DNA of 64,000 nucleotides from Eledone cirrhosa. Its lineage: Eukaryota. The translations under genes and the position numbers were made by a program. This document shows, piece by piece, positions 7,552 through 62,900 of this stretch. Numbering within the stretch: the stretch's first letter is position 1; each line of letters starts with the position of its first letter. The notes under the pieces were generated by a model. That model made no database searches. It was not told where the DNA came from and saw nothing but the letters and a program-made list of their open reading frames with translations. The DNA is taken from contig OZ024743.1 of NCBI GenBank assembly GCA_964016885.1, forward strand, positions 226,300,001-226,364,000, written 5' to 3'.

Positions 7552-7614
7552 ATTTTATCTGATGAAAGCGCACCAAGTCTTGCTTGGTCGCCCTTGAAAT
7601 ATATGTAATAAAAT
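7552..7614 (+). ncRNA. Minimal (short stem III) type I hammerhead ribozyme
   Basis: attttat CTGATGA [aagcgcaccaag tcttg cttggtcgccctt] GAAA tatatg TA ataaaat: 7-bp stem I, intact core, palindromic ATAT loop III. Confidence 0.85.
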
Positions 7615-7749
7615 AAATATTGTTTTATAAATATAGTTTTCATTTATTATTATCTTGGAATATTTACTTCAGTAAATGTTGAGTGCTCTATATCAGTTAT
7701 AAACATTTATGTTTGTCGGAATTCCAACAAATTAAATACAACTCCTACA

Positions 7750-9402
7750 TATATATATATATATATATATATATATATATATATATATATATATATATAT
7801 ATATATATATATATATATATATATATATATATATAAATATATGTATATATATATATGTAGTAACACTAATGGTGTGTGAAGTAATGACTGGTATATAGAA
7901 GCTAGTGTTAACGATATGAAGATGTAGGTGTATATGTGGCATGTGCATATGTGTGCAGTATTTATAGATAGGTATGCATGTCTGTATATGAACGTGTTTA
8001 TATATACAGGTATGTAAGGATCTATGCATGTATGATTCTGTGTGTATAATATATATATATATATATATATATATATATATATATATAAACATACATTTAA
8101 GAACATACGCATATGTATACTCTCATTTACTTACACACACACACACACATGTATATATATATTTATATATACATACATGCATATATATATTTATATATAT
8201 ATATATATATATATACTTACATACATATTTATATATATATATATATATATATATATACACACACACACACACACACACATATATATATATATACGTATCC
8301 ACACACACACACACACATATATATATATTCATACATATATATATATATATATATATCTCTGAATATATATCTATGTGTGTATGTGTGTGTGTGTGGATAC
8401 GTATATATATATATATATATATATATATATATATATATATATATGTGTGTGTGTGTGTGGGTGTGTGTGTGTGTGTGTGTGTGTGTGTGTGTGTGTATAC
8501 GTATATATATATATATATATACAGACATACCTACACACACGTGTGAGTGTGTGTAAGATCTTGCGCTGCTAGGTTACTTTGGATGACCACGTGTGTGATA
8601 TTTTCCGAGATTAAAGCTAACTGAGGTTATACTTCTGCCAAGGTCCAGTGCTTTTGTTCGCGTTCCGTTAGCGCCCGACTCTTTGATGTGTAGACACATA
8701 ATTATATACGTGTTTAGCTAGGTGCATATATAGGTTAGCATACGTGTCGCTATAAATATATAGGTATAAATAAATAAATATATGTGCTTGTGTGCGTGTA
8801 ATACATACTTACACATGACTACAAACACAACCCCACACATATAAACAGGGTATACATAATATATATATATATATATATATATATATATATATATATATAT
8901 ATATATATATATATATATATATATATATATATATATGTATATATATGTATATATATATGTATGTATATATATGTATATATATATATATGTATATATATAT
9001 ATATATATAAAAATATACAATATAATAATATATATATATATATAACATATATATATATATATAATTATATATATATATATATATGTATATATATATATAT
9101 ATATGTATATATATATATATATATATATATATATATATATATATAAATATATATATGTATTTATATATATTTATGTATATATATGTACGTGTAGATATAT
9201 ATATATATATATATATATAAATATATATATGTATTTATATATATTTATGTATATATATGTACGTGTAGATATATATTTATGTCAATATATAATACATATA
9301 TATTTATATAAGTATATATATATGTGTGTGAGTGTGTGTATATATATATATGCATATATATATATATGTTTGTATATATATATACATATATACATATATA
9401 TA
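7750..9402. repeat. Extended (TA)n/(CA)n/(TG)n microsatellite and low-complexity tract
   Basis: Direct; short unique interruptions at about 7860-8040 and 8555-8850. Confidence 0.9.
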
Positions 9403-10224
9403 TCCTTCCGTGCGTAAGAACCCACATGATCTCTCTCTCGTCCTCAGAGACCAAGAGACAAACGAGAGTATATACGAATATAGAACTTTACTTCGGTCTG
9501 TGAGTGATTCGGTTGACCCTACATTTGTACGTATGTTTATCTTGAACATAGTGCGTGTATCGCCCCAACATTTGCTTCTATTGTCATATATGTTCGTTTA
9601 CGTATGTGTATAATTGTGTATACCTATATACATACACACAAATAGATACACCCCCCACACACACACACATATATATTTACACACACACACACACAAATAT
9701 ATATATATATATATGTGTGTATGTGTGTGTACATACACTCAATATTTATATAAAAAATATATATGAATATGAATCTCTTTCTCAATTTGTACACACATAT
9801 ATATGTATGTAGATTATGTAGGTATATATGTGTGTGTTTACCTATATATTAAGAATTGCTACCATTGGTTAATTTTGTGCGCAGTTTTAATTTTAGTTTT
9901 GAAAGAAAACTTTTTCAATATTTGATCTTTGCAATGCCTCGTTGAAACATACCTATTGCTATACACGTAAAGCATATATTAAAGTCATTCTGAAATCCTG
10001 ATGATACGATACTTATGATGATAGCAGTGATATTGAGGATGATGGTAATGATACTGATGCTAATGACGATTATACTGATGATAGATAAATTAACAGCACG
10101 TTTATAATTTACCATACTTATAACCTTCATTCTGAAGGTGCGAATATCTTTAATATTTCCATCTACATTATATTAATATTCATTTATTTTCATCTTTAAT
10201 CTTCATCAGGTGTCTTAGTCTCTC

Positions 10225-10820
10225 TCCCTTTCTCTCTCTCTCTTTCTCATTCATCCTCTCTCACTCTCTCTCTATCTGTATATATACATACATATATATA
10301 TATATATATATATATATATATATATATATGTATATATATATATATATATATACATATATATATATATATATACACATATATATATATTTATATATATATA
10401 TATATACATATATTATATATGTATATATGTATATATATATTAATATATATATATATATATATATATATATATATATATATATATATGTATATATATATAA
10501 ATATATATATGTATATATATATATATATGTATATTAATATATATGTATATATATATGTATATGTATATTAATATATATGTATATATATATAAATATATAT
10601 ATGTATATATATATATATATATATGTATATAAATATATATCTATATATATGTATATACATATGTTGACACACACACACACACACACACACACACACACAC
10701 ACACACACACACACACACACACACACACACACATATATATATATATATATATATATATATATATATATATGCGTGTGTGTGTGTGTGTGTGTCTGTATGT
10801 GTTTATATATGTACATACAT
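10225..10820. repeat. (CT)n, (TA)n, (CA)n compound microsatellite
   Basis: Direct. Confidence 0.95.
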
Positions 10821-11049
10821 ACCACAATGTCTATCCAGTGCTGCAGCTGCTACGGCATTAACGAGAAATTAAGTATCTCATGGTGTTAGATTAAAGTGTG
10901 AAATGAAATCGGTGCCAGTCTTAAATACTGCCGTGTCCAAAATGTAATGTTCACTTTTAAAAGCAATTCACTACTTTATCTCCAATATGTGTGTGTGTGG
11001 AGGGAAGGGGGAGGGTGTGGGAGTATATATTTATATATATATATATATA

Positions 11050-11400
11050 GTTAAAAGAATAGAGGTGTAACACACAAGTTATTATATATTGGTAAACGGA
11101 ATAGAAAATGCTGACAAATTGTTCACAGTTGAAAAATGGTTTAATTAGGAATAAAAGAGTATTAGTGATTGTATGGGTTAGTATTCAGTTGTGGTTTTAG
11201 ATCAGAGCAAACAGCACGGACACTCTATCTCAAAATTATTTTTGAAAAGCATTTAGAAATGCGCAACCAGTAAAAACTTAAAAACTTAAAACCACAACTG
11301 AATACTAACCCATACAATCACTAATACTCTTTTATTCCTAATTAAACCATTTTTCAACTGTGAACAATTTGTCAGCATTTTCTATTCCGTTTACCAATAT
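11050..11400. repeat. (TA)n-flanked fold-back element, family shared with 57792-58113
   Basis: About 11084-11199 is a near-perfect reverse complement of about 11286-11401. The body matches 57889-58113. Confidence 0.85.
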
Positions 11401-62272: not shown

Positions 62273-62396
62273 TATTTTATATATATATTTATATATATAT
62301 ATATATATATATATATATATATATATATATATATATATATATATATATATATATATATATATATATATATATATATATATACATACATATATATAA

Positions 62397-62535
62397 CGAA
62401 GGAGATGTGGTAAGGAACCAGATGGACCATAACGCACCAGAGTACTCAATACTTAGGGTAGTAGAGTGGATAATAGGAAAAAGTATGACCCCGACGGCAG
62501 AACTCTGCCGTCGGGGTCATACTTTTTCCTATTAC
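62397..62535 (-). repeat. (TA)n-flanked pLTR end with a perfect 30-bp hairpin
   Basis: 62471-62500 and 62505-62534 form a perfect inverted repeat; reverse-complement ATTGAGTACTCT at 62439-62450. Confidence 0.75.
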
Positions 62536-62663
62536 ATATATATATATATATATATATATATATATATATATATATATATATATATATATATATATATTTA
62601 TATATATATATTATAATAAAATAACAGGAGGCTAGACTTGTGTAAATCCTTGAAAGGTTTATT

Positions 62664-62721
62664 ATACTATGATCATTTCAATGACCGGGTTCCGTATAAA
62701 TCCGGTGATATCATCAGGTAT
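62664..62721 (-). ncRNA. Minimal type I hammerhead ribozyme
   Basis: Reverse complement: atac CTGATGA [tatcaccgg atttatacggaac ccggtcatt] GAAA tgatca TA gtat. Confidence 0.8.
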
Positions 62722-62842
62722 TCGAAATAAAATAATTGAATGTAACAGATAAAATCCATGGGACTGAAAATCATAGACCCGAGGACGACCGACCATCTAG
62801 CATCTAGGATTTTATCTGTTACATTCATTTATTTTATTTCGA

Positions 62843-62900
62843 ATACCTGATGATATCACCAGATTCATACGGAAACCGGTCATTGAAATGATCATAGTAT
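62843..62900 (+). ncRNA. Minimal type I hammerhead ribozyme
   Basis: atac CTGATGA [tatcaccagattcatacggaaaccggtcatt] GAAA tgatca TA gtat AATAAA; palindromic ATGATCAT stem III. Confidence 0.8.

Follow-up and report, generated by a model that had tools for sequence, protein, structure and literature searches.

Penelope-like elements (PLEs) carry hammerhead ribozymes that cut poorly in vitro, and one of them requires its protein. PLE hammerheads with a short stem III are described as cutting weakly and as dimers (PMC4209133, PMC6765202), and the hammerhead of Poseidon, a PLE of Anolis, as cleaving only with its protein, in vitro insertion not requiring that cleavage (Frangieh et al. 2024, PMC11167929). 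Here we describe hammerheads of this kind in a window of 64,000 nucleotides from Eledone cirrhosa (GenBank assembly GCA_964016885.1, contig OZ024743.1, positions 226,300,001 to 226,364,000), where they appear to form the 3' ends of PLEs of the Hydra clade and carry an unpaired C at the fourth pair of stem II. PLE hammerheads, their dimer architecture and the hammerheads of the Hydra clade are already known; the clade-specific unpaired C at pair 4 appears to be new. We found no description of a conserved mismatch at this pair in the literature searched, which did not extend to the text of Lünse et al. 2017.

The Hydra-clade PLEs of Craig et al. 2021 (PMC8557442) share with the elements described here an open reading frame (ORF) with a C-terminal endonuclease (EN+) bearing the marks of the clade (DKT, CxCX5C and CxxC..E..N..CxH), (TA)n targets, and a sense-strand type I hammerhead near the 3' end with a palindromic stem III, in which U·U at pair 1 is common and stem II position 4 is often C. 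The published Hydra rows have a short, fully paired stem II, whereas stem II is longer here and holds a fixed C·(C/U/A); also unlike them, stem III begins with U, the copies exceed 80,000, and the 3' untranslated regions (UTRs) measure 1-2 kb, the published elements generally being <3 kb in all. Cervera and de la Peña 2014 (PMC4209133) described PLE hammerheads that are likewise of type I, with a helix III that is short and palindromic, flanks rich in U (5') and in AU (3'), inverted pairs spaced by 100-700 bp and many families per genome; their consensus has an unpaired base ahead of the G10.1-C11.1 pair, and neither is usual in our motifs. PLE-associated hammerheads with a diminished stem III, for which dimer cleavage was proposed, are also attributed to Lünse, Weinberg and Breaker 2017 (as cited in PMC6765202 and PMC6466107). 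Poseidon resembles our elements in its terminal-repeat hammerhead and in the two termini that flank its tail, reverse transcription beginning at the two tail ends (PMC11167929); it belongs to another clade, and protein-assisted cleavage was measured there.

Five hammerheads and the elements that carry them

Five motifs in the window, with CUGAUGA cores starting at 7559(+), 19070(-), 33347(+), 62717(-) and 62847(+), contain the type I core CUGANGA...GAAA...UH with stems I to III, and all are short-stem-III hammerheads whose cleavage is a prediction. They are listed here with two degenerate relatives.

7551..7615, plus strand: type I hammerhead of the 'aagc' family, C7569·C7592, predicted cleavage after A7607
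7150..7220, minus strand: inverted partner of the 7559 motif, core at 7211, C·C kept, GAAA changed to AAAA and core broken
11600..11675, minus strand: decayed hammerhead of the same stem III class, core at 11667, U·C at pair 4 (a similar copy at locus L196 has C·C)
19020..19075, minus strand: type I hammerhead of the 'ggtc' family, C19060·C19040, predicted cleavage after A19025
33339..33405, plus strand: type I hammerhead of the 'ggac' family, C33357·C33382, predicted cleavage after A33397, within AATAAA
62664..62721, minus strand: type I hammerhead of the 'tatc' family, U·U at pair 1, C62707·C62683
62843..62900, plus strand: type I hammerhead of the 'tatc' family, C62857·C62881

The common layout is CUGAUGA, three stem II positions, C·C, renewed pairing, GAAA, a six-base near-palindrome and UA, with a stem I of 4-8 pairs. 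The initial annotation of this stretch had reported C opposite C at pair 4 of all five motifs, and this is what we find at the places it gave, which are the ends of stem I. As it also said, pairing resumes beyond the mismatch, at pair 5 in 5/5 motifs; at 62717 and 62847 a U·U at pair 1 leaves just two standard pairs ahead of C·C. Stem III, for which 1-3 bp and a (near-)palindromic loop had rightly been described, is 2 bp long, with A-U and then U-A or U·G (only 2 nt would remain for the loop if a third pair formed), and encloses an 8-nt self-complementary stretch with a predicted self-duplex energy of -2.2 to -7.2 kcal/mol. The predicted cleavage triplet is GUA or AUA at all five, in agreement with the UA site first noted. 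AATAAA, which had been placed immediately downstream, accompanies every motif, but it overlaps the predicted cleavage site at 7559 and 33347, its first A being residue 17, and begins 4-6 nt downstream at 19070, 62717 and 62847; a second hexamer follows 4 nt further on at 7559. Predicted cleavage at 33397 and 7607 thus splits the AAUAAA hexamer, so that cleavage and polyadenylation could compete.

With pair 4 left free, a structure filter retained 7 motifs in the window (5 C·C, 1 C-G and 1 U·C). In 200 block shuffles the mean was 0.065 (maximum 1), and none was C·C. The window motifs that lack C·C, which the initial annotation had left out, have C-G at pair 4 at 17910(-) and in an inverted pair at 59826(-)/59893(+), which the filter fails to catch, and U·C at 11667(-). 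None of 8 loci, two of them outgroup loci that carry ordinary Hydra hammerheads, reached the Rfam gathering threshold; in a scan of the window no hammerhead family was present among the matches listed (150 of 328), where microsatellite-driven miRNA matches dominate. Minimum-energy folds of whole motifs do not yield the hammerhead fold (z-scores -3.2 to -0.2), as is expected for the class, and were not used as support. Inspection by eye also covered two alternative pairings, one in which the first base bulges and the register shifts and one in which stem II forms a pseudoknot with the tail; both fail across families.

The elements concerned, and the tail motif that they share, are located as follows.

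18948..22443, minus strand: 5'-truncated Hydra-clade PLE with the 19070 hammerhead, reverse transcriptase (RT)-thumb/GIY-YIG pieces at 21102-22492
29380..33529, plus strand: 5'-truncated Hydra-clade PLE with the 33347 hammerhead, RT and endonuclease (EN) pieces at 29441-31313
62605..63140, both orientations: inverted pair of 'tatc' 3' ends between (TA)n tracts, the plus-strand copy bearing the tail
63005-63075, 7655-7690 and 33455-33495, plus strand: tail ACTC...GAGT motif, present at many further loci

The 33347 element has an AT-rich 3' UTR of ~2 kb and a tail reaching ~33530, and several of its copies elsewhere match over the whole stretch that leads from the ORF via the 2-kb UTR into the hammerhead. 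In the 19070 element, where the GIY-YIG match is weak (E 0.007), an insertion at ~19540-20452 interrupts the 3' UTR and separates the motif from the ORF pieces; locus L182 is colinear with window positions 22443-20452 (94%) and 19540-18959 (93%). Loci L253-L255 tie the 'aagc' family of 7559 to a Hydra-type ORF, and L256 and L259 do so for aggc-type families, as do L127 and L258 for the C·U family, the ORFs of these hammerhead families being 31-62% identical to that of the ggac family. A single ORF with RT followed by a C-terminal GIY-YIG domain is seen in L080 and L082 (frames of 554 and 750 aa), and the same layout in the ggtc, aagc, aggc and aaac ORFs. The DKG to DKT change is present in the ggac-related and aaac ORFs (the ggtc and aagc copies do not extend to the site), the CxCX5C linker in 10 of the 13 loci examined, and CxxC..E..N..CxH is present as well. 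As to the RWK motif of the clade, one element (L080/L081) has RWR ahead of its DKT; in most of the 32 DKT matches the DNA on that side was too short or not intact. Insertion into (TA)n, inverted 5'-truncated partners and the tail are all found. The ggac, ggtc and aagc hammerheads can thus be assigned to the 3' ends of Hydra-clade PLEs. We gave up a link between a 'tagc' hammerhead and the L128 ORF when the tree put that ORF elsewhere. Homologous proteins number 211, and the viral contigs held no relative of the ORF.

The PLE association proposed earlier therefore stands for three of the four families. For the 'tatc' family we found no linked ORF in 66 loci (30+6+30); it appears to consist of an ORF-less unit of ~2 kb from one terminal repeat to the next, in many copies (L301, L310, L311, L314, L318, L323), and is probably a large non-autonomous PLE derivative, filed by the common tail motif. 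It recalls the non-LTR retrozymes (PMC7229834; bioRxiv 10.64898/2026.07.22.740005), ORF-less hammerhead repeats proposed as PLE derivatives, but its copies of ~2 kb are 5'-truncated and often inverted in the manner of PLEs, and its hammerhead is not of the canonical 6-bp/4-bp loop-loop type. Copies of all families terminate in (TA)n, either ~50 or ~130-200 nt past the predicted cleavage site. At the first of these termini, 50-70 nt past the site, a hairpin-like ACTC...GAGT(A/G)C motif opens the tail of all families and may be where reverse transcription starts; in two of the published Hydra sequences a similar GAGCAC stands after the hammerhead.

Pair 4 across the genome and in related elements

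We counted matches in the 3.0-Gb genome to the pattern CTGATGA-N3-x-N10-40-y-N3-GAAAT-N5-TA (N, any base), with x and y varied, the counts being raw matches to a single core spelling and a single stem III length. C·C (x=C, y=C) gave 56,841 matches (control 7), x=C with y=non-C 26,655 (control 82), x=C with a purine 3,881 (control 39), x=C with G 442 (control 17), and x=non-C with any y 5,350 (control 717). By subtraction there are 22,774 C·U and 3,439 C·A matches. The 5' base is therefore C in 83,496 matches, or 94% of the total, and its partner is C in 68%, U in 27%, A in 4% and G in 0.5%. Among the matches listed, one large family and its relatives prevail in the C·U list, and one short-stem subfamily prevails in the C·A list with two more recurring; the C-G list consists mostly of single-base variants of many different families, ~7 of the 100 matches listed belonging to a small classical Hydra-type family. 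We infer that the C-G share is about the level given by decay of dead copies. In this one genome, over 80,000 hammerhead motifs can escape descriptors that demand a perfect stem II, as they can escape the Rfam cut-offs.

Clustering of 323 distinct sites from 347 sequences (1.5 Mb), a set deliberately enriched for exceptions, gave 19 clusters with at least 2 independent insertions and 50 singletons. The 5' base is C and position 4 lacks a standard pair in every one of the 11 clusters that comprise four or more independent insertions (9 C·C, 1 C·U, 1 C·A). Among all clusters, pair 4 forms in 1/19, as against 19/19 for pairs 2, 3 and 6 and 18/19 for pairs 5 and 7. The genome-wide enrichment of a mismatch at this pair, for which the initial annotation had proposed a count, is strong. 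The neighbouring pairs covary, pairs 2, 3 and 6 each taking 2-3 pair types across the clusters and pair 3 being U-A, G-C or A-U; the 5' C is frequently within a CpG, yet retained. Three small clusters (2-3 insertions, mixed states) with U·C or G-C at pair 4, which derive from loci picked for non-C matches, were treated as decayed copies. The G10.1-C11.1 closing pair is G-C in 2/19 clusters and A-U, G·U, U·U or A·C elsewhere, U·U being a known tolerated variant (PMC3088659). In families of the same genome whose stem III starts with C, pair 4 is mostly paired, and one has C·U.

The initial annotation had called the four ribozymes unrelated. This cannot be kept, because the families have in common Hydra-clade ORFs (in one family the tail motif), the 3' architecture and the tail hairpin, and they do not represent four independent origins. 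In a tree of 30 thumb-endonuclease rows, 8 of them outgroup, a 100/99 branch splits the rows of this genome from the outgroup, and the branches to the aaac and ggtc lineages measure 0.7-0.9 changes per column. A single origin of the families is likely.

The mismatch had also been taken for a trait of short-stem-III PLE hammerheads generally, which the wider comparison contradicts. Read by eye, File S2 of Craig et al. has C·C at pair 4 in 0/26 Hydra rows, with C at stem II position 4 in 16/26 and G as its partner every time (PMC8557442), and Figure S3 of Cervera and de la Peña has C·C in 0/56 hammerheads, the fourth pair of helix II being U·U in one and C·A in another (PMC4209133). Twelve contigs with Hydra-type PLE ORFs were found in prokaryote genome bins (L466-L477) and are evidently contamination by animal-host DNA; in 8 of these outgroup loci the hammerhead after the ORF has a standard pair 4 and no C·C, and L471 has another short motif with C·A at pair 4, but with A·G at pair 3. 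Of 119 matches examined in a metagenome pattern scan, 3 cleared a loose filter for pairing and none was convincing. The trait is clade-specific. Contigs of four runs over 33200-33520 show no variant at either C; the two runs from other organisms are represented by single contigs at a depth of 2-3, and this comparison was not used as evidence.

Possible roles of the unpaired C

The C·C pair had been proposed as a selected structural or protein-contact element. Selection on the mismatch at pair 4 is probable, but specificity for C·C is not borne out, as C·U and C·A characterise whole subfamilies; because the 5' base is fixed and its partner is C, U or A, we infer that the kept feature is an exposed 5' C without a G partner rather than a C·C pair. 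Our favoured reading, to which we give a probability of about 40%, is that this C serves as a base-specific docking point for the RT-endonuclease protein of the element. An ancestral C-G pair would have been lost once to give the mismatch, which would weaken the three core-proximal pairs, and because these are weak the naked RNA would fold and cut poorly. Once bound, the protein would read the exposed C and assist the folding of two ribozymes joined via the palindromic stem III. C·C has a predicted cost of 4.6-6.4 kcal/mol relative to C-G, and the proximal pairs are predicted to form with a probability of at most 0.2 in 3/5 motifs. The apparently ORF-less 'tatc' family likewise retains the unpaired C. 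A fuller scenario is speculative and on the whole doubtful: one lineage of Hydra-clade PLEs may have turned a paired position into an exposed C read by the RT-endonuclease, making the ribozyme a loading site and a protein-gated switch, and the ORF-less 2-kb parasite may keep this handle to hijack the enzyme.

Several observations weigh against the protein contact. The families are of common ancestry and their copy numbers are not independent; the few deep lineages are the chief weakness, and the deep forks of the tree are open, with long-branch warnings. The 3' partner has switched only ~3-4 times, the lack of G among these changes not being significant alone. Across the 19 clusters, pairs 2 and 5 are invariably purine-pyrimidine and pair 6 pyrimidine-purine, a polarity that shared ancestry, with changes passing via G·U, would leave in any case. 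Position 4 is paired in other Hydra elements, which work nonetheless, and the protein-assisted hammerhead of PMC11167929 comes from the Poseidon clade. Moreover, the sequence data would fit a protein contact and an RNA-RNA contact alike.

An RNA tertiary contact, in which the C or the internal loop would dock on distal stem I or on the partner ribozyme and replace the loop I-loop II contact of canonical hammerheads, is the most plausible of the other explanations, though an unlikely one. The mismatch lies one pair below the start of loop II in hammerheads with a 4-bp stem II, and U1.7, which touches loop II in solved hammerheads (PMC11875169), is found in 17/19 clusters within an AAU at 1.5-1.7. 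This AAU may just belong to the poly(A) signal, however; the ggtc lineage retains the C without U1.7, which in AT-rich families is paired within stem I, and no invariant G partner was found in stem I. It is rather unlikely that the mismatch acts as an attenuator only, any mismatch weakening stem II and sparing the template before reverse transcription, whatever the base. The inserted copies end downstream of the predicted cleavage site and their templates were therefore uncut there, the 3' side accepts C, U and A, and in 3/5 motifs pairs 2-3 become more probable with an in-silico C-G (0.81-1.0 instead of 0.10-0.20). At 19070 and 33347, however, formation of the proximal pairs is predicted even with the mismatch (0.69-0.95). 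The 5' C is also kept in 11/11 large clusters, where U·C or A·C would be equally weakening and CpG decay favours U, and a base-specific contact seems more likely than mere weakening.

Shared descent without selection, with one ancestor losing the G and the C merely remaining unchanged in a few master lineages, we regard as improbable. One clade with about five deep lineages, transition-only change at several neighbouring pairs and outgroup Hydra elements that do not need the mismatch would all suit it; pairs 1-3, the loops and the 3' partner have nevertheless changed repeatedly (pair 3 by transversion) and protein identity has fallen to ~31%, while the 5' C is altered in none of the large clusters. 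That a DNA-level or overlapping signal in the terminal repeat, such as a promoter or a polyadenylation site, constrains the C is very improbable: promoters are reported in PLE terminal repeats (PMC6765202) and AATAAA adjoins the motif, but the letters around the C vary between families while the pairing stays, and the sense-strand G·U pairs, which are common, indicate folding of the sense RNA. For the protein contact that we favour, one conserved unpaired base, natural C·C, C·U and C·A forms and a paired outgroup offer a ready point-mutation test of a role in recognition or gating. Should the mismatch prove neutral, the finding would be a large, previously unlisted set of Hydra-clade families.

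Other hammerheads and repeats in the window

Classical Hydra-type hammerheads (U·U, U-A, G-C, C-G, GAAA loop) form an inverted pair with its own tail at 59680-60110, with a further copy at 17411-17613. The hammerhead family at 17657-18313 has a stem III of the CUAG type and C-G at pair 4; it is found elsewhere as 466-bp tandem repeats (L186:174-1370) and beside the RT of a different PLE type (L249). A decayed Hydra-type endonuclease piece at 61590-62252(-) has ~70% DNA identity to the ggtc family and no linked hammerhead. Two further kinds of mobile element are represented.

4166-5344, minus strand: PIF1-like helicase piece (Helitron-like)
37547-39031, plus strand, and 40740-41777, minus strand: non-LTR reverse transcriptase pieces

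An interspersed repeat of ~190 bp, inserted in several elements, occurs at 7233-7424, 17059-17179, 18690-18862, 30170-30365 and 50163-50336; it sits between the inverted pair of the 7559 motif and inside the ORF of the 33347 element.

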